The notes below the pieces were generated by a model. That model ran no database searches and was not told where the DNA came from. It worked only from the letters and a program-made list of their open reading frames with translations. A program made the translations under genes and the position numbers. Positions 710-43,783 of a DNA stretch of 64,000 bases are shown here, one piece after another. This DNA comes from a virus. Every line of letters starts with the position of its first letter. The first letter of the stretch is position 1. The stretch is taken from the UHGV virus genome UHGV-1550212; one strand, written 5' to 3'.

Positions 710-3547
710 CTACTCAGCAGATGCACCTTGCAGTGACAATGTTGTACGATGTACGCCAATTCGAATGCCTTGAGCATTGATGATTTCAGTGTCAAGTACA
801 ATGAATCCGCGAGCAATCGTTTCATCATCATTGTTGCTGCTATCGCAGACATTCGTGTACGAAACTGCGCCACCGGCTGCAACGATGCCATCCATGAAGT
901 TGTCTGCTTTTGTTTTGACCTGCAAACGAACATTTGCAGTGTTTCGTTTGTACTGAGCAGACTTCAGATATGGCTCAATGTTGTCAGCGACATAGATGAG
1001 CAACTCAAGATTTTCAATGTAGCTGAATGCGCTGGTGTAAGCTACTTGTGCAGAACGAGATGTCAGCATTGTGATGACGCCTTGGTCTGAACGAGCGAGC
1101 ATGTTCCAACCTGCAGGTTCAAGGTCATCCATATCAGACCCTTCACCTTGCGAGACAATCATGTCAATGTCGGTTACACCAACACCAGACAGTGGCCACT
1201 CATCACCAGCAACGACGTCAAAGACATGCTTGCCTGCTTCTGTATGCTTTCTCATGAAGACATTCGACAAGATACCTGTTGCAGGAATCGTCATATCATC
1301 AATGCCATCATTGTAGCGAACATTGGCTACATATGTGATGAACGGTGCGCCATCAGTTTGACCTGCGAAGCTGAACAACTTGCTGTATGGTTTATCGGTG
1401 TTACCACCTGCAGCACAGTACTTAGACTCAATTGGGTCACCTGCATTGTCCTTAAAGTACGGGTCAGTTGAGCGGAACAAGTCATACTTGGTTGGCAGAG
1501 CAGAGAATGCGATTGCACGTTTTGAATCATTGCAAATCTTTGCAAACTCGTACTTTTGATTTGCTGCAATGTATGTCTTGAATGGGTCAACTACATAACG
1601 CCATTGACATTGATTGTGGTCCATCAAGCTACGATAAACGCCGCCTGAAATGAGAGCTTGCAGTACTTCTGTCTGACGTGCAGATGTGCCATCAACAAAT
1701 TGAGTTGCACGAAGAGCTACACCATGTAGATATGCGCCCTTGAAGAACTTAACTTGGTCAACAAGCTTCGTCAATGACCAAACAGACGCCTGCGAGGCGT
1801 ACTTCATCATTGAGCCATCTGCAAGTTCAAATTCGCCTTCAGCACCTGCAGCTTTGTATGCCAATGCACCAGTGAATTGATATTCAATCAGCACTTTGTT
1901 TTCTGCAAATGCGTCGTAGACATTCTTCTTCTCAAGCGGCGACAAATCAGCTTCAGTGATTGTGATTGGCATACCGCCATACTTGAGTGGCTTGTCTAAT
2001 GGCAGGCCATTTGAATCATATTCAACAAGGTCACCGCCATATGAAATTGTCTCACCTGCAGCTCTTGCTTTACGAGCTTTCGTTGATGAAGTTTCTGCAT
2101 CTGCAGACTCTTCGCCGCCAATTATGACTGTTGAGCCTTGTGGATAGATGAAGTTGCCCTTTGCATCCTGAGGGAATGCTACCTTTGCACCTGATTCGTT
2201 AGTGTACATTGGAATGCCGCCTTCCTTGCCAATGACAGGAACTGCGCGATATTCAGCTACAACTGCGCGACTTGTACAACGTACTGGCGAGCCATCTGCA
2301 CCAATAAAGATGTCGCCAAGCGAAATTGGCAACACTGGTGCAACAAATGAAGTCTTTGAAGCTTCACCTGGCTGCACAAATGGAACCATCACATTAACAA
2401 ACTCAGATGACACGAAGTCCTTGAGCTGTTCTTTTGTGATTGCGACATCTGTTGCTGTTGGCGTGCAGTCAATCTTTTCAGGATTGATGTCAGTTGACGG
2501 ACGAGCCATGCCAAGATATTGATGCGTAGCATCATCAGCAAACAGTGGACCTGCAGCGTCATCTACAGAAATGTAGTTCGAACCAAAGATGTCCACTGCA
2601 CGTTGGAAACGAGCATCTTCGATATCATTCGAATTGTAGAACTCGTCAACCTTGTCAGGGTCAATCTTACACATGATACCCGTCGTGTCTGACACTGCAT
2701 TCACAGCAGTTTCCAATGACAACTTGTTACCATTGATATCAAGCAAGTCAGGAATCAATGAGCCAGATACACGACCCATGTAGCCAGATGCAGCAAGCTT
2801 TGACAATGCCTCAGGACCATACATGCCATCAACTTGTGCACGGATACCATCCTTTGTGAAGTACTTGCCATATACAGTCGAACCTGCAAGTGACTCATAG
2901 TTCGTCAGCTTTTCAGAGAAGAACCAAACGTCAACCATATAGTCTGACACAAGGTCATTGCAATTCACGCCAGGCACATACATTGATGGGAAGCGGTCTT
3001 GAACTGACTTGATATCATAATCATAGCCAGTCAATGTCGTCGGCGTAATGAAGATTGTTGCAGACTTGTTTGTAAGTGTTGAGAAGTTGAGCAGTTGTAC
3101 AGGGTCAGTGCCAACTGCATTGAGCAGATTCAATGGCTCAGCTTTCCAGAAGTTTGATGTATCATAGACATCCTTAAATGGAACGTCTACAGGCGAGCCA
3201 TCTTCTCCTGAGCTGTTTGCAGCAAAAGTCACTCGTGACAACACATCGCTATCATTGAATGAGCGCAAGTTCAACACAAGAATTGGGCTTGTTGCAAGCA
3301 TTTGCTCTGCAATGAGACCAGCGAAACAGCCGGCACGCTCCAAACGCTTGTCACGTTGACCGAAAATTTCATGCAGCTGGTCTGCATCTTCAACAAGCGC
3401 GGCGCGATTGACCGGACCGTTCTTCCACTGGCCAGGCAGCAATCGAAGTGTTTGAGCGGGCAGTGAGTCAAGGCGACTTGCGTCAATGAACAGACGATAT
3501 GTCCCGACTGACTTGAACCGTTCAAATAAAGAAGTGTTATTTGCCAT
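710..3547 (-). CDS. Tail sheath-like structural protein (T4 gp18-like), 945 aa
   Basis: ORF 710..3631 trimmed to ATG at 3547 (MANNTSLFERF; ATG at 3628 also possible). C-terminus ...YTNVCDSSNNDDETIARGFIVLDTEI resembles the conserved sheath C-terminus as recalled; large size, structural neighbourhood. Confidence 0.5.
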   Translation of the reverse strand: MANNTSLFERFKSVGTYRLFIDASRLDSLPAQTLRLLPGQWKNGPVNRAALVEDADQLHEIFGQRDKRLERAGCFAGLIAEQMLATSPILVLNLRSFNDSDVLSRVTFAANSSGEDGSPVDVPFKDVYDTSNFWKAEPLNLLNAVGTDPVQLLNFSTLTNKSATIFITPTTLTGYDYDIKSVQDRFPSMYVPGVNCNDLVSDYMVDVWFFSEKLTNYESLAGSTVYGKYFTKDGIRAQVDGMYGPEALSKLAASGYMGRVSGSLIPDLLDINGNKLSLETAVNAVSDTTGIMCKIDPDKVDEFYNSNDIEDARFQRAVDIFGSNYISVDDAAGPLFADDATHQYLGMARPSTDINPEKIDCTPTATDVAITKEQLKDFVSSEFVNVMVPFVQPGEASKTSFVAPVLPISLGDIFIGADGSPVRCTSRAVVAEYRAVPVIGKEGGIPMYTNESGAKVAFPQDAKGNFIYPQGSTVIIGGEESADAETSSTKARKARAAGETISYGGDLVEYDSNGLPLDKPLKYGGMPITITEADLSPLEKKNVYDAFAENKVLIEYQFTGALAYKAAGAEGEFELADGSMMKYASQASVWSLTKLVDQVKFFKGAYLHGVALRATQFVDGTSARQTEVLQALISGGVYRSLMDHNQCQWRYVVDPFKTYIAANQKYEFAKICNDSKRAIAFSALPTKYDLFRSTDPYFKDNAGDPIESKYCAAGGNTDKPYSKLFSFAGQTDGAPFITYVANVRYNDGIDDMTIPATGILSNVFMRKHTEAGKHVFDVVAGDEWPLSGVGVTDIDMIVSQGEGSDMDDLEPAGWNMLARSDQGVITMLTSRSAQVAYTSAFSYIENLELLIYVADNIEPYLKSAQYKRNTANVRLQVKTKADNFMDGIVAAGGAVSYTNVCDSSNNDDETIARGFIVLDTEIINAQGIRIGVHRTTLSLQGASAE

Positions 3548-3653
3548 GTTCGTTATCGTATTTGTTGTAAATTGTGAAATGTTGCTTTGTTTGATTATAA
3601 CTTGATATATGTATGTATATGATGACATCAAACATGTTGTTGACCAAAATCAA

Positions 3654-3681
3654 AAAGACCAGCTCAATTGAGCTGGTCTTT
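3654..3681 (-). terminator. Intrinsic terminator, 28-nt perfect palindrome
   Basis: AAAGACCAGCTCAATTGAGCTGGTCTTT; T-rich on sense strand downstream; lies between stop of 3705..7820 and start of sheath gene. Confidence 0.6.
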
Positions 3682-3704
3682 CAAATGCTGTTTAACTGTC
3701 ATCA

Positions 3705-6700
3705 TTAGCCACGAATCAAGTCAACCAAGCGTTGCTGTTCAGGAGTCAATGAAGACTTTCCGCTGCCATCAATGTTTTCGTTAACGAAACCGACTGGCTG
3801 CTTAGTCGAATATGACTTGATTGCAGCCCAGTTACGTGAACGATAGAATGCTGCGACATCTGACTCATTTACGAAAGTGCGAACTGCTGCCTGAGTAGCA
3901 ATCAATGACTTCTGTTCAGGAGTCAAGCTTTCATAAATGTACTTGTATGCTGTTGGCATATGCTTCAGATACAATGGTGTATGGTCAATTGGCTGCAGGT
4001 TCTCATCCAAGACTGCTACACCAGCAGCATCATAGCGAGTTGCAAGCTGCTTTGTTTGACGACGCAATGCAGCAATTTCATGCTTGATGCTTGTCAAGCA
4101 TTCATCAGTTGCTTGTGCGCCAAGATATGTGCGAAGCATATCAGACAGCATCTTCTGATTTGCATCGGTCAAATCACCTGCAACTTCAATGCCAGTCAGC
4201 TGGCCATCTTTGCTGATGACTACAGAAATTGTAGAACCGTCGCGTTCAACTGTGCGGAAGTCAAAGTCATCGTATGACTTATCCTTAAGGACAGCTTCAC
4301 GAATATTGTCATCTACGCCTTCATTGACCATGCTCATGCATTCCTCAACATCTACGTCAAGTCCAAGCTCTTCTGCAGTTTCAGCAATCTTTTCTGCAAG
4401 CTGAGCTTTATTCTCAACTTTGTCAAGGTCTGCTGCATCTGATACAGCATCGACAAGTTCATCTGCCTGTGCACGAGTAATCGTTGAAGCATCAACAAGG
4501 CCATCAATGATTTGCTCTACATCTGCAGGTGTCGGCTTGTTGTCTTCTGCTGCTTCATTGATAAACTTGGCAGTCTTTGGCTTGTAGCTAAGCTTGCCCT
4601 CATTGACCATCTCATCCTGCAATTGTGCAGCGATGTATGCAATTAGCAATGACTTGTTGGCTTCAAGTTCATCGACTGCTTCAGCAGACTTTTGAGCTTT
4701 GATGAGTTCATCGTAAGCTGCTGCAACTTTGTCATCCATCGTAGACTTGTCAGGGTCAATGTTTTTGATGCATGTCTTGACAATATCATCCTGATAGAAC
4801 TTGTCAATGATTGATTTGTCTGTGTCAGAGTATGTTGCATATAACTTGTCTGCGACAATTGATTCATTGACAATCTTGCCTGGCTCAGATGCAGGAACAA
4901 GAGTCCACTTACCATCAACTTCTGCAACAATGCCTGAAGTCGATTCGCCATAAGTGACTGTTAGACGAGTGCCTGCTTCATTGTTGTCAATTGTGTTGAC
5001 GACTGCTTCGAATTCATTACCATCAGCGTCATAGATTTTGATGCTGTCACCGACAGCAGCTTCATCTACTGGTGCTTCGAAGAACTCTTTGACAAAGTTC
5101 TGAACATCAACGGGCAGACTGTCATATGGCTGTGATGCATAGTACTCTGAGTCAGCATCAAGGTAATTCTTTGAAAGCAGCCAAGCTTTTCGAGTAGCAA
5201 CATCTGCAGCATTCCAAGCATCGACTGACTCATCGCAGTCATCGACAAGTGCAAGATACTCATGGTCTTTCTTGTCATCAAAACGAAGAGTAATCTTTTG
5301 TTCGGGCTTGCCAGCAGGCCAAACTTCGACTTCAATTTCTGTAGTGCCTGCAACATTTTTGACTGTGCCTACAACAATCTTGTCGCCTTTGTTGATGCCA
5401 TTAGACATGTCGTATGGTGCTTCAATAGATTCATCTGTCGACTGAGCTCGAATTGCTGCAGCAATAGCATTACGAGATTCATTGTCGAACATCTCCCATG
5501 TAGCATTCGCAGCATCTTCTACACCAATCTTGTCTTTGCCAACCTGCTCAATCAACTGATTGCGGTCAGCTACTGAAGCATTGTACCACCAGTCTGCAGC
5601 AGTGTCAGATGCTTCATTGACAAATGCATTGAGCAATGCAGTCTGAACGTTATCAGGCAACTTGTCAAAGTCAACAAGCTCTACGTCATCTGCAATATTT
5701 GCTTGCTTTGCTGTTGCTTTACGGCCATCTGCATCAGACTTATTCCAGTCATCAATGAATGCCTGTTCAGCAGCAGATTCATCAAGCGCTTTGACAGTTT
5801 CATATCGACCGTCATACAGCATGTACTTATCGCCTTCTTTGATGGCTACAGACTCCTTGCCATTGTACTTGAATGACACTTTGTCACCATTGAAGCCGGT
5901 CAATTCAGCTGTGATTTTATCGCCATTCTTGTCATACACTTCAACTGTCTGCTCTTCATCAATGTTCAAGTGCTTCTTGAGTGCATCTACAAGTTCTTTG
6001 CCAAGAGCGTCTTCATTGTCATGGGCTTGCTGGAAGCAATCTTCATCTGACTTGTCAGGCTGAACAGCTTTCAATGCTGTTGCCCGATTAAGCATTGACA
6101 TCGTGCCCCAGATTGACATGAAGCTTTTGCCCTCATTGTCTTGTGCTTCGGCTTCGTCAATTGCATCAATGTCTTTCTCAAGCATTGCATGATGAGCAAT
6201 GTCGATGCCAGACCATTTCGTCTTTGCATTATATGGCAAACCAATATGCTTCGACAAAATTGACTGACGTTGGTCATCTGTGAATGAATCCCAAGCTTCG
6301 CCAAGTGTTGCATGCTTTGCTTCATCAGCAGCAAATTCTGTTTCAATCTTAAGTTTGTGGTCCTTGTCAATCAGTTGCCACTTGGCATTTGGACGATAGA
6401 ACTCAGACAATGACAGCTTGTCAAGAATGACTTTGCGTTCGTCATCTGACAATTCGTCCCACTTGTTGTCAGCAGATTCATCGATGTTGACGAGTTCTTT
6501 CTCAATGAGATTCTTGTCAAGCATTGCATCAATGATTGGCTGCTGGGCTTCTGCTGGAATGTCTTTGAACGACTTAATTGCAATGACAGCGTCTTTGTCA
6601 TCAACTTTAGCAGCTTCAACAATTTCTGTCTTCACTTCATCAGTCAAAGCGCCCCAAGCAGCATCGAGATAATCAAAGTTGAGAGCTTCATCACATTCAA

Positions 6701-7820
6701 CAATGCCATACTGCTTTGCAATGTCATTGTGCTTGTCAAGATTGCTGTTGAGTTCAGCTTCAATTGCTGCTTTGATGTCATCAATTGACTTATCTTCAAC
6801 TTCAAGCTCAAGAGCTTTTGCAAGTTCAGTCAATGCTGCATCATCAAGCTTGCTAATGTCATAAGGCTTAGCATCTTCATTTGTGAAGTCAATGCCAAGC
6901 AAAGACATTGCTTGCTTCTTGTTTTCTTCTGAGAGTGCATCGAATGCAGTTGCAAGACCGACATCGGTGTAGTCGCACCCAACTTCGTCAAGTAATGCTT
7001 CGACTTTCTGGATGTTTTCTACGCCAACTTCGTTAGCATCAGCATTGTTGTATGCCTCAACAAAACGTGATTGGTTTGTCATGGTAGTGAAATCTTCTAT
7101 TGATTCGTTTATGAGTTGCTGTTTGAGTGCATCCAATGATGCTGAGCCAATCAATGCATCAGGGAATAGCTTCTGCAACATACCTGTACGTGCAAGCTCA
7201 ATCAATTGGAGCATCAATGAGTTTGGCGAGTCTTCGTCATCTACAGATTCACAAATGAGAGTGTCTTTTGATTCATTAACTGAACCGACAAGATTGAACT
7301 CTGCATTCGAAAAGCCTGGCTGTGCAACCAAATCAAATGTCACGATTTTGAGAAGCTGAACTCTGCCAGTAGTTGGATTGACTACGCCAAGGGCGCGACT
7401 TGAAATGAACAATGGCGAACCTGCTGTAACAATTGCCCATGCAATGCGACCTGCAGGCGTATCAAGAATTGTAATGTAGCCTTCAAAACGTCGTTTTTCA
7501 GGATTCCATTCAATACTGTCCAATCTGTGGCTTACGTTTCCATAACGTACAGTACGTCGCTTAACATGTTCAAGTTCGCCAAGAAGTCGCTTTGCTTTAA
7601 TTGCAGGTTGCAATGCCTGTACTTGAGCAAAGTAATTCTCAAAGTCATACGTGCGCCCATTTTCGTTTTTCTGGTCCATGTATGCATACACGCCAAAAAG
7701 ACGACCAAGTGCGCCGCTTGGCACATGAGAATCTTCTGCTTCAACTACAAACTGACAATCTGCGCGGCTTTCAAGCATAAGTGAGGCTTCCCTGCCTTTG
7801 TACTTATATGACTTTGCCAT
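3705..7820 (-). CDS. Prohead core protease-like N-terminal domain (T4 gp21-like, ~210 aa) fused to ~1160-aa highly acidic low-complexity region (scaffold/internal-protein-like)
   Basis: First ATG at 7820 (MAKSYKYK). N-terminus ...NGRTYDFENYF...LLGELEHV...GYITILDTPAGRIA...FISSRALG matches prohead protease motifs as recalled; remainder is Asp/Glu-rich throughout. Confidence 0.6.
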   Translation of the reverse strand: MAKSYKYKGREASLMLESRADCQFVVEAEDSHVPSGALGRLFGVYAYMDQKNENGRTYDFENYFAQVQALQPAIKAKRLLGELEHVKRRTVRYGNVSHRLDSIEWNPEKRRFEGYITILDTPAGRIAWAIVTAGSPLFISSRALGVVNPTTGRVQLLKIVTFDLVAQPGFSNAEFNLVGSVNESKDTLICESVDDEDSPNSLMLQLIELARTGMLQKLFPDALIGSASLDALKQQLINESIEDFTTMTNQSRFVEAYNNADANEVGVENIQKVEALLDEVGCDYTDVGLATAFDALSEENKKQAMSLLGIDFTNEDAKPYDISKLDDAALTELAKALELEVEDKSIDDIKAAIEAELNSNLDKHNDIAKQYGIVECDEALNFDYLDAAWGALTDEVKTEIVEAAKVDDKDAVIAIKSFKDIPAEAQQPIIDAMLDKNLIEKELVNIDESADNKWDELSDDERKVILDKLSLSEFYRPNAKWQLIDKDHKLKIETEFAADEAKHATLGEAWDSFTDDQRQSILSKHIGLPYNAKTKWSGIDIAHHAMLEKDIDAIDEAEAQDNEGKSFMSIWGTMSMLNRATALKAVQPDKSDEDCFQQAHDNEDALGKELVDALKKHLNIDEEQTVEVYDKNGDKITAELTGFNGDKVSFKYNGKESVAIKEGDKYMLYDGRYETVKALDESAAEQAFIDDWNKSDADGRKATAKQANIADDVELVDFDKLPDNVQTALLNAFVNEASDTAADWWYNASVADRNQLIEQVGKDKIGVEDAANATWEMFDNESRNAIAAAIRAQSTDESIEAPYDMSNGINKGDKIVVGTVKNVAGTTEIEVEVWPAGKPEQKITLRFDDKKDHEYLALVDDCDESVDAWNAADVATRKAWLLSKNYLDADSEYYASQPYDSLPVDVQNFVKEFFEAPVDEAAVGDSIKIYDADGNEFEAVVNTIDNNEAGTRLTVTYGESTSGIVAEVDGKWTLVPASEPGKIVNESIVADKLYATYSDTDKSIIDKFYQDDIVKTCIKNIDPDKSTMDDKVAAAYDELIKAQKSAEAVDELEANKSLLIAYIAAQLQDEMVNEGKLSYKPKTAKFINEAAEDNKPTPADVEQIIDGLVDASTITRAQADELVDAVSDAADLDKVENKAQLAEKIAETAEELGLDVDVEECMSMVNEGVDDNIREAVLKDKSYDDFDFRTVERDGSTISVVISKDGQLTGIEVAGDLTDANQKMLSDMLRTYLGAQATDECLTSIKHEIAALRRQTKQLATRYDAAGVAVLDENLQPIDHTPLYLKHMPTAYKYIYESLTPEQKSLIATQAAVRTFVNESDVAAFYRSRNWAAIKSYSTKQPVGFVNENIDGSGKSSLTPEQQRLVDLIRG

Positions 7821-7898
7821 ATTTGAATTGTGTTTGAAAGTTTGCAAATTTTTGTTGTTATTGATTATATATGCAAGGCAGACTTGTGTGTTGAAAAA

Positions 7899-7927
7899 TT
7901 GCAAAATTTCAGTTATGTGTACATAAC
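7899..7927. promoter_or_regulatory. Divergent intergenic region with TTGCAA box and inverted repeat GTTATGT-GT-ACATAAC
   Basis: Between minus gene start 7820 and plus RuvC-like start 7954; 7-bp arms around a TGTACA core at 7912-7927. Confidence 0.3.
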
Positions 7928-7953
7928 AAAACCATCCAAATCAATTCAATTAT

Positions 7954-8622
7954 ATGTCAACAAACAATCATGGCAAGCTCAGATTGCTTGAGCTCAAAGA
8001 AGCACAGCCATATGACACGCTCAAAATTGGCATTGACGTATCAGTAGATGCTACTGGCATGTGCATGATATTTGGCAAAACTGTTGCGCTGTTCAAATTT
8101 ACGCCGCACTTGCCACCAGAAGATGACAGTTCAGATGATGTGAATTTTGTGCAGTTCAACAAAATCTATCTGCAAACATCATCTTCTGCAAGAGAACGCT
8201 CAAAAATGCATACTCGACACACACTTGCAAACAAGATTGTTGACGCGATTGATATGTTCATGCAGGAAATTTGGCCGAATAGCCCAGCAAACATTCAAAT
8301 TGTTACAGAAGGGTCTGCATATGGCTATGCCGCACACAACTCTAACAGCTTGGTAGAACTTGCTGAATTTAGAAGCGTGATTTTAGAAAGAGTCTATCAT
8401 CGTTGGCCACTCGGCACGCATCTAAGTCTTGACGTTATTGCGCCAAAATCATTGAAGAAACATGCAACCGGTGACGGCAAAGCAGACAAACTAAAGATGA
8501 TTGAAGCTGCAATTGCTAAGTTGACACACATTCATTGGGCAGGCAAAATTGACGATGAATGCGATGCATTGCATCTTTGTCTGTATGAGCCATTAAGCAA
8601 TCCTGAACCACGACTTTGGTGA
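7954..8622 (+). CDS. RuvC-like Holliday junction resolvase
   Basis: LKIGIDVSVDATG (Asp motif I), IVTEGSAYGYA (catalytic Glu), DDECDALHLCLY (C-terminal Asp/His motif); 222 aa. Confidence 0.65.
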   Translation: MSTNNHGKLRLLELKEAQPYDTLKIGIDVSVDATGMCMIFGKTVALFKFTPHLPPEDDSSDDVNFVQFNKIYLQTSSSARERSKMHTRHTLANKIVDAIDMFMQEIWPNSPANIQIVTEGSAYGYAAHNSNSLVELAEFRSVILERVYHRWPLGTHLSLDVIAPKSLKKHATGDGKADKLKMIEAAIAKLTHIHWAGKIDDECDALHLCLYEPLSNPEPRLW

Positions 8623-8788
8623 CATTACATCGTACAACATAAGTTTCATTTCAAAAACTCAATTCATATGCAAATCCCTCGTAACTGGGGGTGGGGCACA
8701 ACAAGCCCTCCAAGTCAAAGACGGCGCATTTGACATCACTGTGCGCTTTACATGTGAAAGCTCTACAGCTGCACAATATAAGTACATC

Positions 8789-9049
8789 ATGGTGCACATT
8801 GATGGCTTACATGCAGCAGGTCAATATGCATATCTTGGCGTATCATTGTCACAGACAGGCGTCATATACCATGCAAAGTGGACATCTGGTTCTGGTACAG
8901 GACCTCAAGGCCCATTTAAGCCAGGCACAATTATCAGATTTGGCTTGCACAATTCAGTGTCATCAACTACAACGCCTCGTGCAATGCAAGCAATAGAAGT
9001 TGACGCAAAGCAATTTGGGCAAAATTATGCTATATTGTTTCAGCTGTAG
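8789..9049 (+). CDS. Hypothetical protein (86 aa)
   Basis: First in-frame ATG of track ORF 8741..9049 (GTG start); downstream of RuvC-like gene on same strand, followed by hairpin at 9094. Confidence 0.3.
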   Translation: MVHIDGLHAAGQYAYLGVSLSQTGVIYHAKWTSGSGTGPQGPFKPGTIIRFGLHNSVSSTTTPRAMQAIEVDAKQFGQNYAILFQL

Positions 9050-9093
9050 TATTGATTGCAATGGTATGCACTCGTTAACATAAGCATCAAAAA

Positions 9094-9120
9094 ACTCCGA
9101 CAGAATTGTTCTGTCGGAGT
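9094..9120. terminator. Bidirectional intrinsic terminator between convergent genes
   Basis: ACTCCGACAGAA-TTG-TTCTGTCGGAGT, 12-bp perfect stem, A-run upstream and T-rich downstream. Confidence 0.65.
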
Positions 9121-9167
9121 TTGCTGTTGTAAACAGCTGTCTTAATGTTTTGCAATCTATAGCAAAT

Positions 9168-10961
9168 TCAATTTTGTGTTGCAACGTCATCAGTCTTGTT
9201 ATCAACTGGCTCATCGTCGACATGTGTATCAACATCAATGCCAGAAGCTGCAGCAAGTGAAACATCATTAGCGACGCCTTGTTGTTCAAGTTGTTGTTGA
9301 GCTTGCTTTGTTTGAATTGCGACAAGTCTTGCAGCTTCCATTGCAAGCTTAAGATTCTCTTGAAGTTCGATATCAAGCTGTTCAGCATTAGCTTGCATGT
9401 CTTCTTTGCTTAAGCCAAGATACTTGTTGATAAGCCAATTGCTTGAGAAGAATGGGCGTTCAGTATCAGACATGTTAAGTGAACGAACAAGTGAACTGCG
9501 AATGTCTTCGATTGTATGAATACGCTTCTGAAGCAATGTGAGCTCCATTTGCGTCTGGAAATGATTGTATCTATTGAATTTGAGTTTTAGCGCATTCAAA
9601 ACTTCATTGTCGCCAATGTAGTTATTGTTTTTGATGCACATCAAAACATACACAGGCTTCAATATGATTGCAATGCCAAATCTACGCATCAAAGCTGAAA
9701 TAAAGATTGCAAAACGACGCTCATCACGCTGAATTGACTCTTCAGAAACATTCCACATGCCACCGCCATCATCGAATCTGCTTAGAGGCAGCTTTGACAG
9801 ACGTTGTAAGTTATTGCGGAAATATGTGACTGCTGAAGTATCAGATAAGTCAGGCATGCCTGTGCCAATTGTTTGAATGTTGGGTTTGCCTGCATTAGTG
9901 TCAGCCATCCAAAATTCGCTATTGAAAGGCACAGATGCTTCGCCATTAACTTGGAGTTCGCCGGTTTGATTGTCGAATTCAATTTTTTCGTGGTACTTAT
10001 TCATTGCTTTACGCAATGTTTCCTGTGCAGCAGCTTTCAGTTTACCGCCAGTAGGAATTGTGATAAGTGAACGAAAACGAGAAGCTGTCGTAGCATATGC
10101 AATGCGACTTCGCTCCAAAATCCTGAGCAAGTTGAATGCACGAACAAGACGCTCAAAATATGACATAGACCCAACCATGTCATCGTTCCACTGCAAATAT
10201 GCTACTTGCGAATCAAGCAAGTTGATTTTTTCTGAGTTGTTAGACACAAATGCTGGTGCTTTGACATCAAACATTGTATGTGTCTTGAACATATCTTGTT
10301 GAGACTTATCATACTGCCAGAAGAACATTTCACCCTTCTTCATAGGCGTCAATGCAAATGCATTCAACTTTTTGATGCCAACAATATCAGTCGGCTCATC
10401 TGCATTATCAAACACAATCTCATAGCCAAGTCTGCCTCGTACAAGATATTCACGCAACAATGCTCTAACATCTTGTTTGCGAGGTTCAGAGTTCAACCCA
10501 TTGAATGCATACATCAAATAGACTTGCTTGAATGCATCCATAAAGTCATCTTTGATTGTCTGCTTTGCTGTGTCGTCTATCTCAAGTTTATCGATGTCAC
10601 AAAAATCAGGCTCGCAAAAGAAATTACTATCGGAATTGAACACGATGCACTCATCAATCATGCGGTCAAGAATGTCGTCGAGTTCCGGTTCTGCACTTAA
10701 GATGTCATATTTTTTGGCTCGAAGATAACTTGTCAATCCAAAAAGATTCTTTTTAGGTGACTCTTTCTGATTGAACACGTCATCAGTAGACAACACAACA
10801 ACTTCTTGGTCATTGATGTTATGCTCACCTGTATATGCTGCTTTCTCCAAATCTGCATCAGACCCAGACTTGTGCACATTCAATTGCTGCAATGGACTGT
10901 CTTTCGGAATTGAGCGTAATGCATCAGTTCCCAGATATGTTCGTTTGGTCTTTTTAGCCAT
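9168..10961 (-). CDS. Portal-like protein (T4 gp20-like), 597 aa
   Basis: ATG at 10961; ...SEFWMADTNAGKP...YFRNNLQRLSKLPLSRFDD resembles portal core motif (VPLSRI region) as recalled. Confidence 0.55.
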   Translation of the reverse strand: MAKKTKRTYLGTDALRSIPKDSPLQQLNVHKSGSDADLEKAAYTGEHNINDQEVVVLSTDDVFNQKESPKKNLFGLTSYLRAKKYDILSAEPELDDILDRMIDECIVFNSDSNFFCEPDFCDIDKLEIDDTAKQTIKDDFMDAFKQVYLMYAFNGLNSEPRKQDVRALLREYLVRGRLGYEIVFDNADEPTDIVGIKKLNAFALTPMKKGEMFFWQYDKSQQDMFKTHTMFDVKAPAFVSNNSEKINLLDSQVAYLQWNDDMVGSMSYFERLVRAFNLLRILERSRIAYATTASRFRSLITIPTGGKLKAAAQETLRKAMNKYHEKIEFDNQTGELQVNGEASVPFNSEFWMADTNAGKPNIQTIGTGMPDLSDTSAVTYFRNNLQRLSKLPLSRFDDGGGMWNVSEESIQRDERRFAIFISALMRRFGIAIILKPVYVLMCIKNNNYIGDNEVLNALKLKFNRYNHFQTQMELTLLQKRIHTIEDIRSSLVRSLNMSDTERPFFSSNWLINKYLGLSKEDMQANAEQLDIELQENLKLAMEAARLVAIQTKQAQQQLEQQGVANDVSLAAASGIDVDTHVDDEPVDNKTDDVATQN

Positions 10962-10981
10962 TTTTGTATTGCTTTGAATAT

Positions 10982-12220
10982 CTATACACGTCTTGTCAAT
11001 TTGACATGACCGCAGTCATCTGCAAGCAGTTTAACATGACCGCAGTCATCTGCAAGCAGTTTAACATGACCGCAGTCATAAACTTTGACGAAGCCTGCAT
11101 CAATCATAGTTTGCTCATCATGATTGCAGTCAAGCACATGTGTATGAGTTTTCATATTGTACCAATGCAAGCCGATGTAAAAGTCAGTCTTGTGATATGC
11201 GTCAGTATATAATCGTGGGTCATCTATAGACAAATCAAGTTCGACGCAGTCAGCAGTCTGCAGTTGTTCTGTGTCAGTTAGCAATGATTTGACAAGCTTG
11301 ACTACAGCATCAAATGACATCCAATCAAATACAGTGATGCATCTATAGCCATGTTGCATAGCTGTGCAACATTTGTCAAAATGCGTAGTTGATGCAATTG
11401 GCTTGTTGACTGTAGAACGACCAGTAGCAAAATCAAATGCAAATGTGCTGTTATGCGTAAATGACGGATTGACATCAATTAGCAAATTGTCATATCGCAA
11501 ATCAAATGCGTAGCAATCTACGTCATGTTCATATTCAAAATCAACACCAGTATGCTCAAGTAGCATATCATGTAACAAGACGTTTGGCTTTGTAATGATT
11601 TTGCCATTTGCAAGTCTGCACTTCTGAGTTAAACAATGCCAAGGCACGCCATATCGTTCAAGTGTAGTGTTGCTAATCTTCTGCAAATTGCCAAAACCGC
11701 TGCCATAGCGTAATTGCTTTGTGACTGTTTGCTGTGCAACATTACCATTAGCATGACCAAACTTGTTGATGTTTGTTTGCTTGCGCTTAGCATTTGCAGT
11801 TGCAATATCAACAGATTCAAGTGACTCAAGAAATTTTGACATGTCGCCAAGCCCATTGCCATATAGTTGACGTTTAGTGTCAACAACTTTTGTCATGTTC
11901 CAGTGCTTGTAGCCATATCGAGCTTCTTTTGTCGCAAATGCTTTGTCATAGTTGCCAAAGCCTGCATGACCATATCGTTCAACTTTTGTTGCAGCAATTT
12001 TGTCTGAGACTTCTTTAAGCTGATGTTTGTATTCAACGCCAAACTTGCGCAAATTTGATATGCGAATGTTGAACACTCGTTTGACTTTTGTATGCGTAGA
12101 GCCTTTGTCAAGCTTTGCATATGGAATTTGTGCAAGTGCAGCGTCTCTTTCATCTTCAAGCTCTCTTATTCGAGCTTCAAGTGCATCACCAGCCAAAACT
12201 TCTATGCGTATAGTCTGCAT
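10982..12220 (-). CDS. Repeat/nuclease-like protein: coiled-coil N-terminus, 6-7 degenerate TK-x-(E/A)RYG repeats, C-terminal LLIDVNP..THNS domain; candidate free-standing homing endonuclease
   Basis: 412 aa; GDALEARIRELEDERD, repeated ...TKVERYG...TKEARYG...RQLYG...TLERYG; paralog of 16405..17604; C-terminal 30 aa is a triplicated decapeptide. Confidence 0.6.
   Translation of the reverse strand: MQTIRIEVLAGDALEARIRELEDERDAALAQIPYAKLDKGSTHTKVKRVFNIRISNLRKFGVEYKHQLKEVSDKIAATKVERYGHAGFGNYDKAFATKEARYGYKHWNMTKVVDTKRQLYGNGLGDMSKFLESLESVDIATANAKRKQTNINKFGHANGNVAQQTVTKQLRYGSGFGNLQKISNTTLERYGVPWHCLTQKCRLANGKIITKPNVLLHDMLLEHTGVDFEYEHDVDCYAFDLRYDNLLIDVNPSFTHNSTFAFDFATGRSTVNKPIASTTHFDKCCTAMQHGYRCITVFDWMSFDAVVKLVKSLLTDTEQLQTADCVELDLSIDDPRLYTDAYHKTDFYIGLHWYNMKTHTHVLDCNHDEQTMIDAGFVKVYDCGHVKLLADDCGHVKLLADDCGHVKLTRRV
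11004..11079 (-). repeat. Perfect 30-bp tandem repeat x2.5 at the 3' end of CDS 10982..12220
   Basis: Unit ACATGACCGCAGTCATCTGCAAGCAGTTTA; encodes DDCGHVKLLA x3; each unit carries inverted repeat ATGAC-CGCA-GTCAT. Confidence 0.9.
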
Positions 12221-12279
12221 TGCAATTTGTTGTCAAATCGCGAACTTCATATGTTGTCATTGACTCATTCATAGTCGCA

Positions 12280-13026
12280 TCAAATCATTCTGTTATCACT
12301 AACTGCAAAGTTGATATTGTTGTCTTTCAGATATTGCATGTATCGCTGAAAAATCTGGTCAGCTGTCAGTTTTTCATAATGATTCGATGGAATGAAGATT
12401 GCTTTAGACCAATCTTCATATTTGAACTCAATCAAGCCTGTCATTCGTGGTGGCAAATATGAACGAAATGCGAATGCTGCGCCATACTTTGTGACAAGTG
12501 AGCCAACTTGCTGCCATGTCATATGCACTGCAGTTTGTTCAGAACGATACATCTCGCCTTTGTATTTAGACGCAAATGCTTTGAAGACAGTCTCAATGAC
12601 AAGAAAACGAACTTCAAGAGGCAAGTGGTGCAAGTTTACACCCATGCTGACTACTGAGCCGTCCTTTGCAATATAATACGACAATGACAAAATTAACGGC
12701 GCGCAGTCGTACCAATCAAGTACATCTGCATGCTTTGGATTGTCATACACAAACATGTACAATTTCCCAGGTTCCATGTACTTTCTGCGAATCTGCACAT
12801 CAGGATTCGTAGCATATGATTTGAACCATGCAGCAGCTTCTCTACCACCGTTTGGCATTTTGTACCATGGATTGCTTCGAATTTCTTTGCCAAGGTCATA
12901 TTGACCGGACTTTACCAAACGATTGAATAATCGTTGTGCTGCAGTCAATATTGAACGTCCTACTGACTTCGCTTTGTCAATAAAAGACGTTTTTGCTTGT
13001 GTATCTAATGAATTAAACTTGGGCAT
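12280..13026 (-). CDS. Hypothetical protein (248 aa)
   Basis: Track ORF 12280..13041 trimmed to ATG (MPKFNSL). Confidence 0.6.
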   Translation of the reverse strand: MPKFNSLDTQAKTSFIDKAKSVGRSILTAAQRLFNRLVKSGQYDLGKEIRSNPWYKMPNGGREAAAWFKSYATNPDVQIRRKYMEPGKLYMFVYDNPKHADVLDWYDCAPLILSLSYYIAKDGSVVSMGVNLHHLPLEVRFLVIETVFKAFASKYKGEMYRSEQTAVHMTWQQVGSLVTKYGAAFAFRSYLPPRMTGLIEFKYEDWSKAIFIPSNHYEKLTADQIFQRYMQYLKDNNINFAVSDNRMI

Positions 13027-15781: not shown

Positions 15782-16405
15782 TTATGCATTGGCAATTTCA
15801 GATGGCATTCTGAACTTGATGTCATTATACACAAATGTCAATGTGAATGTCATCACGTTCTGGTCTACACGAGTTTTGTCATATGTGAGTTCTGAAATTG
15901 CAGAAAACACGACATCAATGAAGTCGATGCCAAACAATGGTTTCTTTGCACCGCCATATGTCGCTACAAATCTGCAGGGCTGAAAGTAGATAGTTTCGCG
16001 TTTATCGTTAGCGTATCTGAACAAACTCTCTAAGCAACAAAAATAGCTTAAACCACCATTCGTCAATCTGCATGTCACCTGGATTCGCTTATCAAGTGCT
16101 TGATGAATTGTCTTGCTGCCCTTATGAAACTGTGTAATTGACTTCTTCATGCCACTGTCATCAAGAACTTTATTGACATTCTGAGTAACAATTGGCATCG
16201 ATATGCCCATCAATGACACAGACTGAATTGAATCATGCAACAAGTCATTGATGTCATAAATGATTTGTGTTGGTTGTTGCACAAACACTTTATTGTAAGT
16301 ATCAGCAATATCTTGCGGAATCAAATCAATTGGCAAGTCAAAGCGAAACTGGTCTGACCGTGTATCGAGAATGAGCATATTTTTGATAATTTGTTTATGT
16401 ACCAT
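15782..16405 (-). CDS. Hypothetical protein (207 aa)
   Basis: ATG at 16405 overlaps stop of upstream gene (TAATG). Confidence 0.6.
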   Translation of the reverse strand: MVHKQIIKNMLILDTRSDQFRFDLPIDLIPQDIADTYNKVFVQQPTQIIYDINDLLHDSIQSVSLMGISMPIVTQNVNKVLDDSGMKKSITQFHKGSKTIHQALDKRIQVTCRLTNGGLSYFCCLESLFRYANDKRETIYFQPCRFVATYGGAKKPLFGIDFIDVVFSAISELTYDKTRVDQNVMTFTLTFVYNDIKFRMPSEIANA

Positions 16406-17604
16406 TAACTGTCATACGACCAGTGACCACAGTCATACACTGGCACAAATCCAGTGTCAAGCATTTCTTGCTCAATAAAGCCATCATCAAGCAAATGTTC
16501 ACCTGACTTCGTATTGACCCAATGCTTCTTAATTGTGCATTCATCAACCACAAAGGGATTAAGTGCATTGTCAGTGCAATCAATGAACACATTATTCAAA
16601 TGCGCGTCAATGACATGCAGCACAATTTCTGGGTTGTGCCAATCAAATATCATAAGTGGCGTGTAGCCACATACAATTGCAAGTTGTTGCTTCCACCAAT
16701 GATAGTTTGGCTGTTTTGCTTCTGCGGCATTTCGTTTAAAGCCATACACGCTATTATGAGTATGCGTCGGGTTAACGTCAATTAGCAGATTGCCATAATA
16801 CAGGTCATATGATGTTATGCCAACATCATGTTCAAACTCAAAATGCACACCAAGATGTTCTTCAATGTATGATTGCCACCATCTGTTTGGCGCAGATATG
16901 ATTTGCCCATTTGCTTGCATACATTTATTTGTCATGCAAAACCATGGCACACCGTAACGTTCCATACAGGTTTTTGAAATTGCAGCAAGCCATTCATCTT
17001 TGTCTCTATGCGGCCATGCATAACCATAACGCAGACGACATGTTTGTTGAGCTTTAGCAACGATTGGCGCTAAACGTTCACCGTATATTTCACGTTTAGT
17101 TGCGATGGCTTTGCGTGGATTAGTCCATCCAGCATCACCCCATCGCTCAAGCTTCGTTTGCTGAGATTTTTCAACAATCAGTTCAAGATTCTCACCATAT
17201 TTTTGACGACGAGTTTGCATTGCTGCAACATAATCTGTAATGCATCTATGGCCATACAAACGTTCTTTTGTCGCACTATGTGCTTTATCGCCATATGAAC
17301 TGCCGTAGCGTGCAACTTTAGTGGCAATTGTTTGCTTGATGTTGCCTGCTTTAGAACCATAACGAGCTTCTTTAGTTGCTACGCATTTTTGTTTGACTTC
17401 TGCTCTGTTCCAATTATGCTCAACGCCATGTTTACGAAGATGGCCAATTTTCATGTTGTACACGTTTTTGATATGACCATGAGATGTCTTACGTGGTGCA
17501 TATCGTACAAATGGTGTTTCTGCAAGCAACTTATCTCGTTCAGCTTCAAGCTCTTTAATTCGAGCTTCAAGAGCTTCACCAGTCAAATGCTCTACATGTT
17601 TCAT
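16405..17604 (-). CDS. Repeat/nuclease-like protein, paralog of 10982..12220 (399 aa)
   Basis: GEALEARIKELEAERD; repeats ...TKEARYG...TKVARYG...KERLYG...REIYG...RLRYG...MERYG; C-terminus ...NLLIDVNPTHTHNS. Confidence 0.6.
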   Translation of the reverse strand: MKHVEHLTGEALEARIKELEAERDKLLAETPFVRYAPRKTSHGHIKNVYNMKIGHLRKHGVEHNWNRAEVKQKCVATKEARYGSKAGNIKQTIATKVARYGSSYGDKAHSATKERLYGHRCITDYVAAMQTRRQKYGENLELIVEKSQQTKLERWGDAGWTNPRKAIATKREIYGERLAPIVAKAQQTCRLRYGYAWPHRDKDEWLAAISKTCMERYGVPWFCMTNKCMQANGQIISAPNRWWQSYIEEHLGVHFEFEHDVGITSYDLYYGNLLIDVNPTHTHNSVYGFKRNAAEAKQPNYHWWKQQLAIVCGYTPLMIFDWHNPEIVLHVIDAHLNNVFIDCTDNALNPFVVDECTIKKHWVNTKSGEHLLDDGFIEQEMLDTGFVPVYDCGHWSYDS

Positions 17605-30291: not shown

Positions 30292-30597
30292 ATGCAAACA
30301 CAAGAAGTTTTAGATGCAATTGACATGTCGCAGTCAGCTCGCAATTATGCGCTTGGCACTGTATGCGATGCAGAAGAGCATGAAGATGCTGTTGAAGCAG
30401 TTATCGAAGATTACATGCAAGGCGCAAGAGAAATGTACGTCAAGCTGACTACATTTGTCAATGTTAATGATGCAGTGCCTGCAAACAACTACCCAGTCAT
30501 TGCAAAGCTTGCAAATGACTCATATGCAGTTGCAACGTTTGAAAATGACATGTGGTCTGTCGACAACGTAGTTGCATGGCGCAAGTTGCACATTTAA
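30292..30597 (+). CDS. Hypothetical acidic protein (101 aa)
   Basis: ATG start; one of only three plus-strand genes; convergent with 30660..33965. Confidence 0.5.
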   Translation: MQTQEVLDAIDMSQSARNYALGTVCDAEEHEDAVEAVIEDYMQGAREMYVKLTTFVNVNDAVPANNYPVIAKLANDSYAVATFENDMWSVDNVVAWRKLHI

Positions 30598-30615
30598 GCC
30601 CTACAGCACAAAAAA

Positions 30616-30636
30616 AGTCCGAGCATTGCTCGGACT
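30616..30636. terminator. Bidirectional intrinsic terminator
   Basis: A6-AGTCCGAGC-ATT-GCTCGGACT-T7. Confidence 0.75.
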
Positions 30637-30659
30637 TTTTTTGTTGTGCATTGATTGGC

Positions 30660-43198: not shown

Positions 43199-43412
43199 AT
43201 GTGTAAGTGTGAAGTTGTTCAAAAACGTCTTCAATCAAGTTTGTTTCAAATGCAAACTCATTTTTTGATATGCAAGTGACCATATAAATGCCATCAATGT
43301 TTACGATGCTGCAATCATGACCATCTGGACTAAATTTTCTGTCTTTGTACAGAATTTCAGCCATGATGAGTCGTTGATTAAGCATAAGTGGATTGCTATA
43401 GAATCGTTTCAT
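43191..43412 (-). CDS. Hypothetical protein (73 aa)
   Basis: ATG start. Confidence 0.4.
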   Translation of the reverse strand: MKRFYSNPLMLNQRLIMAEILYKDRKFSPDGHDCSIVNIDGIYMVTCISKNEFAFETNLIEDVFEQLHTYTYE

Positions 43413-43416
43413 ATCA

Positions 43417-43638
43417 TTAAGCTTCTTTGAAATTCAAGCAATTATTGAACCAGAGTTCTTCTGAAATCGTAAGCTCCAATTCAAAGCAGTTATTCTTGAT
43501 GAAGTCGGTCGGGTCATAATTGAAATACACATATTCACCTGAATAGTGAAAAGGCTGTTCCATAGCAATCAATGCGAACATTAAACGGTCAATGTCCTTT
43601 TTATTGCCGTATGCTACGTAAACTTTAATCTGTTTCAT
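43417..43638 (-). CDS. Hypothetical protein (73 aa)
   Basis: ATG start; AAACCTCTACAAC leader. Confidence 0.45.
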   Translation of the reverse strand: MKQIKVYVAYGNKKDIDRLMFALIAMEQPFHYSGEYVYFNYDPTDFIKNNCFELELTISEELWFNNCLNFKEA

Positions 43639-43668
43639 TGTTGTAGAGGTTTTATATTATATATTAAT

Positions 43669-43697
43669 ATATTACAACATTTGTTGTCAATTTGCAC
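43669..43697 (-). promoter_or_regulatory. Sigma70-like promoter (GTGCAA-N17-TAATAT)
   Basis: Direct reading. Confidence 0.4.
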
Positions 43698-43738
43698 AAT
43701 TGTTGTTAACAAAATGCATTACATTGACAAAAAAATAA

Positions 43739-43763
43739 AGGCTCAGTTTGTATAACTGAGCCT
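43739..43763 (-). terminator. Intrinsic terminator after thymidylate synthase gene
   Basis: AGGCTCAGTT-TGTAT-AACTGAGCCT; A-rich on plus. Confidence 0.6.
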
Positions 43764-43783
43764 CTTGAAATGACACGAACTTA

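Follow-up and report, generated by a model that had tools for sequence, protein, structure and literature searches.

The phage genome UHGV-1550212 carries, between its portal and prohead protease genes, a two-gene island on the strand opposite to its neighbours: a gene for a divergent RuvC-family resolvase, followed by a small gene whose 5' end shows the signature of a slipped-strand contingency (phase-variable) locus. We analysed 64,000 nucleotides (nt) of this ~175-kb genome (the window; all positions refer to it unless a contig is named). Taken as a whole, the evidence makes it probable, in our judgement, that this is an island at a transcription-unit boundary with a flipped resident RuvC gene, an accessory gene gated by a poly-G tract, and a shared terminator. 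Open reading frames (ORFs) of 90 amino acids (aa) or longer are nearly all on the minus strand across the window; outside longer minus-strand ORFs, only 7954-8622, 8741-9049 and 30292-30597 lie on the plus strand, and those other inter-ORF gaps that we inspected are occupied by small minus-strand ORFs. AT skew is positive only within 8001-9000, and the GC content of the island does not deviate. This layout bears out an earlier, sequence-only reading of the same DNA, which had pointed to a plus-strand island, alone but for 30292..30597, that interrupts the run from portal to prohead genes; its flanks are indeed a Portal_T4 gene (4e-59) and a PHROG 207 protease. The same reading had suggested an independently regulated or acquired cassette. 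What it observed was confirmed, and its interpretation was supported only in part.

The small gene begins 46 nt 3' of the RuvC gene, with a start codon and leader at 8668-8686 on the plus strand (ATG CAA ATC CCT CGT AAC T, reading MQIPRNW). An interrupted poly-G tract of 10 nt, GGGGGTGGGG, follows at 8687-8696 (plus strand) and leads into the body at 8696-9049 (plus strand), 117 codons and a stop that encode a predicted all-beta ORFan of the window-type allele. With this tract the body is in the +1 frame relative to the ATG, the OFF configuration: there is a single ATG, at 8668, whose register is off by one base, and reading from it meets a stop at 8731-8733. GGGGGTGGGG is the sole 10-mer with at least nine G in the 64 kb, and G runs of six or more occur nowhere else. 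An ORF listing gives a GTG-started ORF at 8741-9049, whose frame is open far upstream and reads ...GGGAQQALQVKDGAFDITV.... The small ORF of the sequence-only reading is present, but it is not a plain ORF; the frame break and the poly-G tract had been missed. The related contig L001, with flanks that are 91-96% identical, shares this layout, its ATG and body again lying in different frames, and has GGGGGAGGGG as its tract. Read in the frame of the body, the T/A difference between the two tracts is synonymous; read in that of the ATG, it is non-synonymous.

Over 12 related contigs (numbered with the prefix L), the tract is 7, 9, 10, 11 or 12 nt long, and it joins ATG and body in frame in five and out of frame in seven; in the window, too, it is out of frame. 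The in-frame tracts are G12 (L015, L018, L026 and L029) and G9 (L021); the out-of-frame tracts are G5TG4 (10 nt, the window), G5AG4 (10 nt, L001), G10 (L027), G11 (L022 and L023) and G7 (L024 and L025). The leader was found before every tract seen, its sole difference being AAC to AGC (A-to-G) in L024 and L025; contig L023 begins at the small-gene ATG. Tracts of 9 or 12 G go with full-length called proteins, P0009 (124 aa), P0013 (118 aa) and the 117-aa product of L015 and L018, while the other tracts go with five database entries (P0007, P0008, P0010, P0011 and P0012) that start at internal codons. The body is intact, at 107-117 codons, in 11 of the 11 contigs translated, and L029 also reads through in the same frame; the sole indel in the body is of 6 nt. 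L024, L027 and L029 are identical at ~93% of nucleotides or more (judged by eye from the alignment), yet they carry G7, G10 and G12, respectively, and the one further indel among them from the RuvC stop to the small-gene stop is of a single nucleotide, in an A run. From these alignments, the tract appears to mutate far faster than its surroundings, and OFF copies persist without apparent decay. The homopolymeric tract lies near the start, at codons 7-10, and is at least as long as the ~7 nt typical of contingency loci; it is polymorphic, with five length classes that shift the frame between intact flanks and an intact body. Because tract length varies among close relatives while the body stays intact, the small gene bears the signature of slipped-strand phase variation.

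The protein behind the tract comes in at least three alleles. These share the leader MQIPRNWGG(G)AQQAL and the motifs KYI, QY and FGLHN..TT.P, and are elsewhere only ~20-30% identical. The in-frame full-length homologue P0009 is 76% identical to the window body; in the P0013 allele, the ATG of the leader is the only ATG. The small gene is missing from L014 and L016, where the 3' region of RuvC is joined straight to the downstream hairpin. This junction does not follow from simply deleting what lies between the 9-nt repeats ATGCAAATC and ATGCACATC, since TTCAT is missing as well, and that origin was rejected. The small gene evolves fast, with a ratio of non-synonymous to synonymous substitution rates (dN/dS) of mostly 0.4-0.7; the full span within allele types is 0.26-0.83, and one allele pair has 21 non-synonymous against 2 synonymous differences (ratio 3.1, p = 0.08); the non-synonymous excess over RuvC in the same genome pairs has p values of 1e-12 and 3e-7. 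The protein is 13-14 kDa, neutral to basic, with a grand average of hydropathy of -0.30 to 0.10, predicted to be all-beta, and without an obvious hydrophobic segment (by eye). No allele matched a Pfam family, and the lone weak PHROG hit was phrog_16653 (E 0.022). One further match, the eukaryotic C1q/Ig repeat protein P0014, was rejected as spurious, the alignment running through five repeats of a short strand-like stretch. On this pattern of presence and absence, at least three alleles and a poly-G gate, the small gene behaves as an accessory cassette. Our best guess, based on its evolutionary pattern and on phage precedents, is that it encodes a host-interaction or defence-related bet-hedging factor.

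The first gene of the island, at 7954-8622 on the plus strand, encodes a 222-aa protein that the predicted fold and an acidic tetrad mark as a divergent member of the RuvC family of Holliday-junction resolvases. Against Pfam RuvC (PF02075) it scores 22.2 bits, equal to the gathering score, over model positions 67-145, the C-terminal half only; against PHROG 159 (RuvC-like resolvase) the E-value is 2e-13. An AlphaFold2 model built on six homologues has a mean predicted local distance difference test score (pLDDT) of 75.5 and a predicted TM-score (pTM) of 0.79, with a low-confidence insertion at about residues 51-76, and shows an RNase H-like alpha/beta fold with RuvC topology. Foldseek, run with this model against the PDB, gives eight top matches, each of them RuvC or Ydc2, a mitochondrial resolvase (E 4e-6 to 2e-4, probability 1.00, target TM-scores 0.38-0.64). 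In E. coli RuvC, the catalytic acidic residues are D7, E66, D138 and D141. The residues D28 (in GIDVS), E119 (TEGSAYG) and D201/D204 (DDECDAL) of the window protein are invariant in six homologues, down to 56% identity, and in a weak hhalign alignment (E 0.14) DDECDAL falls on the DAADAL motif of the E. coli protein. Compared with seven relatives, the gene has 25-45 synonymous and 0-3 non-synonymous differences (dN/dS 0.00-0.03, ~0.01), and it is under strong purifying selection. Six clusters of homologues were found in the protein database, and tblastn against GenBank phages at 1e-5 found no homologue. The RuvC-like resolvase named by the sequence-only reading is upheld by the predicted fold, the invariant tetrad and this dN/dS.

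Comparison with relatives bears on how the RuvC gene came to face its neighbours. Contigs L010 and L011 are syntenic with the window gene for gene (gp2-like gene 84-87% identical, portal 77%, RuvC 80%, protease 55-66%, sheath 75%), and their whole gene set, RuvC included, is on one strand. The 80% identical resolvase occupies the same slot, in the order portal, RuvC, protease: it starts 23 nt past the portal gene, and after it come a hairpin of its own, ending in a T6 tail, and then the protease-upstream block. The small ORF is missing from this relative with co-directional RuvC. In the clade of the window, RuvC is inverted in 15 of 15 contigs (in the short contigs L025, L027 and L029, orientation was judged not from a called neighbour but from the hairpin together with the end of the portal gene). 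Among contigs with identical or near-identical resolvase, the gene is antiparallel to its minus-strand neighbours wherever present (L001, L014-L019, L021, L022, L024, L025, L027 and L029), and RuvC is present in each related contig that spans its position. More distant homologues (57-62%) lie in a different module, co-directional with and beside gp32-like, helicase and thioredoxin genes. Since a syntenic relative has an 80% orthologue, co-directional, in the same slot, the gene in the window clade appears to be a resident that was flipped in place by a lineage-specific rearrangement, and not an import; so flipped, it would need its own transcript. The synteny comparison that the sequence-only reading had proposed, once run, showed an arrangement that varies among relatives and is not conserved in all of them. 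The suggestion that the whole unit was acquired did not survive, given the orthologue in the same slot, normal GC and purifying selection on RuvC; the notion of a cassette may still fit the small ORF alone, which acts as an accessory gene.

The transcripts of the island and of the portal operon would end at the same hairpin. At 9092-9122, a 14-bp stem (9092-9105/9109-9122) with a 3-nt loop forms an element resembling an intrinsic terminator on both strands, common to the portal transcript (minus strand) and the transcript of RuvC and the small gene (plus strand). Its free energy is -25.2 kcal/mol on the plus strand and -23.2 kcal/mol on the minus strand (z -6.8 and -6.3), and none of 200 shuffles folded equally well. 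The minus strand has a U6 tail (with A6 upstream), and the plus-strand tail, UUUGCUGUUGU, is weaker. With a stable, GC-containing stem-loop and a U tract on each strand, the element is predicted to be a bidirectional terminator; it is kept in 11 related contigs, and a scan with a terminator consensus did not list it. The hairpin that the sequence-only reading had placed at 9094-9120 is real and strong, and extends to 9092-9122. The loop (9106-9108) is TTG in the window and most relatives and its reverse complement, CAA, in L014, L015 and L018. This difference is a flip of the centre of the palindrome, an outcome that recombination within the stem, or template switching there, would be expected to give. 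A second bidirectional terminator, at 30610-30642, is perfect (A7, a 9-bp stem GTCCGAGCA/TGCTCGGAC, T7) and closes the plus-strand ORF 30292-30597 (101 aa), whose only family hit is phrog_30554 (E 0.08), of unassigned function there. L010 has another opposite-strand gene, of 244 aa, between protease and sheath, which has no counterpart in the window. This genome seems to make repeated use of one design, a lone opposite-strand gene with a two-way terminator at its end.

At its other end, the island is bounded by a divergent intergenic region of 133 nt (7821-7953). The part at 7821-7911 is, on the minus strand, the upstream region of the protease gene and its presumed promoter. It is orthologous to the protease-upstream block of L010 and L011, where the shared pattern AAATTTGCA..AACACAC..TGCATATATAA.CAATAAC stands after the RuvC terminator (alignment A6). 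TGCATATATAA was also considered as a repeated promoter motif in the window and rejected, at 61 matches against 48 expected. The remainder, 7912-7953 on the plus strand, is the leader of the RuvC gene, made up of an imperfect palindrome, GTTATGTGTACATAAC, at 7912-7927 and then a 28-nt stretch at 7926-7953 that is near-invariant across eight contigs of the clade (alignment A5). In the same alignment, the leader ACAAAACCATCCAAATCAATTC(A)ATT(A/G)T and the TGTACATA before it are kept regardless of upstream content, and the TGTACATA element with the 28 nt before the RuvC ATG is our best candidate for a RuvC promoter and leader. The inverted repeat noted at 7912-7927 in the sequence-only reading does exist, but as a structure it is no better than chance (-4.6 kcal/mol, z -1.6), and only its TGTACATA core is kept in relatives. 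The divergent promoters proposed there found no support from a sigma-70-like scan, in which hits were at chance (7 against 6.6 expected). The scan used an E. coli-type consensus, probably the wrong model here, since none of 41 genes has a Shine-Dalgarno core. Independent regulation of the island is plausible, because its opposite orientation forces a separate transcript. The motif CAATTCA stands just 5' of the ATG in RuvC, the small gene and the protease gene alike.

A narrower claim than that of the island as a whole is that the small gene is a genuine contingency gene, in which a poly-G switch and allele replacement behind a constant 15-residue leader would let a phage population keep some members ON and others OFF for a rapidly diversifying protein that acts in host interaction or anti-defence. 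We hold this claim tentatively, at a little under an even chance. Several observations weigh against the reading of the island as a whole, in one or another of its parts. Tract lengths come from consensus assemblies of different samples, and poly-G is error-prone on Illumina instruments. Length partly follows lineage (L015 equals L018, L022 equals L023, L024 equals L025). Contigs break beside the tract, L017 ending 11 nt before it and L023 starting 16 nt before it; such breaks are compatible with population-level switching and are not diagnostic of it. The window and L001 both have G5-N-G4 with a different N at the same position, which would be odd for independent mutations, and these interrupted tracts (the window protein is recorded from JGI, L001 from IMG/VR) could be a pipeline artefact; if real, they would stabilise, or lock, the OFF state. 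The structure model of the small protein is unusable (pLDDT 39.5), and a profile search of 1.84 billion representatives returned no informative homologue, only the family itself and P0014. For the resolvase, no PDB entry matched at the sequence level, even with the family profile, and the Pfam score lies exactly at threshold with half of the model covered. Finally, one simple inversion does not account for where the hairpins lie in L010 and in the window.

The tract has two further readings that deny it the role of a switch. It could lie in an untranslated leader, or in a small ORF that is dead or dying, with length differences that reflect neutral slippage or sequencing noise; a tract out of frame in seven of 12 related contigs and in the window too, the want of an informative homologue or a confident fold, a fairly high dN/dS with one pair above 1, and contigs that break at the tract would all fit. 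We nonetheless think this unlikely, as no other stop or frameshift occurs in 107-117 codons across 12 contigs and three alleles, where the sole body indel is 6 nt and in frame; from the tract to the first internal start, 15-24 codons stay open and encode a conserved protein sequence; P0013 has no alternative ATG; and a range of 7-12 nt is too wide for consensus error. Alternatively, ribosomal -1/+1 slippage or RNA-polymerase slippage could bridge the frame break, so that tract length tunes the amount of protein. Long G runs can pair with tRNA-Gly in several registers, the body is intact in each OFF contig, and both JGI-derived sequences keep an interrupted 10-nt tract together with an intact body. 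Set against this, neither a stimulatory structure downstream nor, apart from the G run itself, a conserved slippery heptamer is present, and three frame relations occur, which no single shift would serve; bridging of this kind is very unlikely.

The other two alternatives concern the island as DNA. That RuvC and the small ORF form one horizontally acquired, self-contained cassette (a moron) between portal and protease draws on their opposite orientation, own intergenic regions and terminator, on a plastic neighbourhood (the 401-aa insert, the 62-70 aa ORF and swaps of homing-endonuclease-like genes described below), and on the distant RuvC homologues (57-62%) in another module beside gp32 and helicase genes. 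It is quite unlikely in view of the 80% orthologue in the same slot of a syntenic relative without the small ORF, a GC content that is not deviant, and differing histories, RuvC being always present with dN/dS ~0.01 and the small ORF optional and allelic. Least credible by far is that the island works as an active DNA switch that inverts in the manner of the Mu G segment or of Bacteroides invertons, or that a diversity-generating retroelement (DGR) targets it. Orientation does differ between clades, the hairpin loop occurs in both orientations (TTG and CAA) and the small gene is hypervariable, but the only candidate bracketing inverted repeats are 15-nt pairs of 80-87% identity, at chance level, a single orientation is seen in 15 of 15 clade contigs, and allele differences are spread over the whole body. 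The neighbouring products scanned against Pfam and PHROG matched no recombinase family, and no second copy of 8623-9167 that could serve as a DGR template repeat was found in the 64 kb beyond 17-nt chance matches. With no bracketing repeats, one orientation and no template repeat, inverton (Gin/Cin-type) and DGR models were both rejected.

The genome around the island is that of a large myophage, as indicated by a T4-like portal, a prohead protease and a 973-aa tail sheath. The portal gene occupies 9168-10961 on the minus strand (Pfam Portal_T4 3.8e-59; PHROG 213 5e-54). The protease, on the minus strand at 3705-7820, is fused to a long, acidic, scaffold-like region, 1371 aa in all (PHROG 207 head maturation protease 5e-32; Pfam Peptidase_S77 8e-5, under the cut-off), and its orthologue in L010 is 55-66% identical; beyond it lies the sheath gene (710-3631), assigned by Pfam and PHROG searches. 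The length of the protease/scaffold fusion ranges from 1316 to 1589 aa (window, L001, L010, L014 and L015), the variation falling in the long acidic middle. The lowest GC content of the window (0.35) is at 43235-43783, which holds two 73-aa minus-strand ORFs and no bigger gene. No tRNA or Rfam family was found in the window.

Megablast of 3000-13000 found no match among GenBank phages. The portal was the only query to find distant GenBank phage relatives, the closest portals (27-33% identity) belonging to jumbo phages of Chryseobacterium, Sphingomonas (PAU), Tenacibaculum and Prevotella (Lak phages). A search of IMG/VR found one relative only (L001), an exact-pattern scan of JGI metagenome contigs found none, and a profile scan added three loci to the set of relatives. 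The related contigs originate in human-gut metagenomes, and the source is an uncultured human-gut jumbo phage. None of 41 minus-strand ATG starts has a Shine-Dalgarno core (AGGA, GGAG or GAGG at -18 to -4), and their leaders are A-rich and G-poor, which suggests translation starts independent of Shine-Dalgarno pairing, as in Bacteroidota. The host is probably a member of the Bacteroidota of the human gut, which fits these leaders.

The stretch from the portal terminator to the protease-upstream region is a hotspot. Many relatives have a 401-aa minus-strand gene between protease and RuvC (L015 6715-7920; split in L014), a 34-36% paralogue of the window genes 10982-12220 and 16405-17604. These two are themselves ~400 aa, 34-36% identical, and contain repeated ERYG-like modules. 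The product of 10982-12220 matches DUF7487 under the Pfam cut-off (24.8 against 27 bits) and PHROG 'homing endonuclease' families, and the ~400-aa paralogues have the appearance of free-standing, mobile endonuclease genes that hop from one intergenic slot to another. In L001, an unrelated 372-aa TnsA/endonuclease-I-like gene (11347-12465) replaces the copy upstream of the portal. A tandem repeat at 11000-11079 (period 30, 2.7 copies, 98% identical) lies in the 412-aa window copy at its 3' end, just upstream of the portal, and adds DCGHVKLLAD units to the C-terminus; L001 has only one copy of the matching 5' unit part, beside its replacement gene. On the portal side of the hairpin, most relatives have ~240 extra nt with a 62-70 aa minus-strand ORF (L001 9120-9404, L014 8802-8990), the L014 copy of which has a hydrophobic stretch; the corresponding gap in the window (9123-9167) is only 45 nt and has no such ORF. 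In the 62% clade of RuvC homologues, a gene of 319-360 aa with a TnsA-like or resolvase-like nuclease domain lies directly 3' of RuvC (L007 8720-9802, L008 1302-2384, L009 5889-6848) and is absent in L006. Because some contigs carry a nuclease gene there, the position after RuvC is a hotspot in that clade too.

We propose that the island operates as follows. It would lie at a boundary of transcription units, flanked on one side by the end of the portal operon and on the other by the presumed protease promoter region, with the small gene probably on the same transcript as RuvC. The resolvase would act as a metal-dependent dimer through D28, E119, D201 and D204, cutting four-way and branched DNA and so removing replication or recombination intermediates before or during head filling; its position among gp2-like, portal and protease genes suggests such a packaging-linked role. 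Translation of the small gene would be gated by the hypermutable tract at codons 7-10, whose length polymerase slippage would alter. Tracts of 3n (9 or 12) would join the ATG to the body to give a 124-127 aa all-beta protein, and translation of other lengths would end after ~21 codons; the T-interrupted 10-nt tract of the window would leave the gene OFF and possibly locked. Switching within a population may be reversible. The palindromic terminator would halt both converging transcripts. Allele swapping, presence and absence, and fast protein evolution suggest that such a gene serves as a host-interaction or defence bet-hedge.

The resolvase belongs to a known family, in which it is ordinary, though divergent. 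Bacterial RuvC (E. coli 1HJR, P. aeruginosa 6LW3 and T. thermophilus 6S16) has the same RNase H-like fold and is its best structural match, and the acidic tetrad and the C-terminal D-x-x-D-A-L motif are common to RuvC, phage resolvases of PHROG 159 and the window protein. At 222 aa, the latter is longer than RuvC (~155-170 aa), and it is 11-18% identical to the solved RuvCs. T4 endonuclease VII (gp49) and T7 endonuclease I strip branches from concatemeric DNA, letting packaging proceed. By family and by position among packaging and head genes, the window resolvase is expected to play a similar role, although their folds are unrelated to its own.

To our knowledge, experiments have so far documented phage-encoded phase variation by repeat slippage in just two groups, the phages of Campylobacter and, very recently, the T-even phages. 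If our reading of the small gene is true, this would be the first such locus outside those groups, it would involve a protein family without known relatives, and it would extend bet-hedging by hypermutable phage genes to the gut virome. The ORFan family would be flagged as one that probably helps determine how phage and host interact. Small ORFs whose frame is broken behind a homopolymer risk being mis-annotated as truncated genes, and with a series of tracts across samples, alleles and presence or absence already in hand, public reads can be mined for this locus at once.

In Campylobacter phages, poly-G tracts and contingency loci have been described (Sorensen et al. 2021, Cell Rep 35:109214, as cited in PMC10877375 and PMC12823448). 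Fletchervirus is reported to have, likewise, a G tract in the 5' part of an ORF whose length sets the frame, in a myophage with a T4-like portal. The window differs in having one tract in 64 kb, in a 13-14 kDa ORFan that is not a recognisable receptor-binding protein, and in a phage whose host is probably a human-gut member of the Bacteroidota, not Campylobacter. The contingency loci agt and rIIA of T2 and T4 undergo reversible frameshifts, proposed to be anti-defence bet-hedging (Gomez, Barrick and Waters, bioRxiv 10.1101/2025.10.21.683753), and are, like the tract here, repeats of simple sequence within the coding regions of a phage. They are for the most part runs of 6-9 A, and the genes that carry them are conserved, whereas in the window clade a G run of 7-12 nt opens an optional, multi-allelic gene, which is nearer to classical bacterial contingency genes than the T2/T4 loci are. 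The invertible segments of Mu (G) and P1 (C) resemble the island in having a gene block in opposite orientations in related genomes and a variable accessory protein; unlike them, the island has no flanking inverted repeats or invertase, and its orientation is fixed in the clade. The poly-G-gated ORFan is new in its setting, an optional, multi-allelic gene of a human-gut jumbo phage, and the type of mechanism is one already known.

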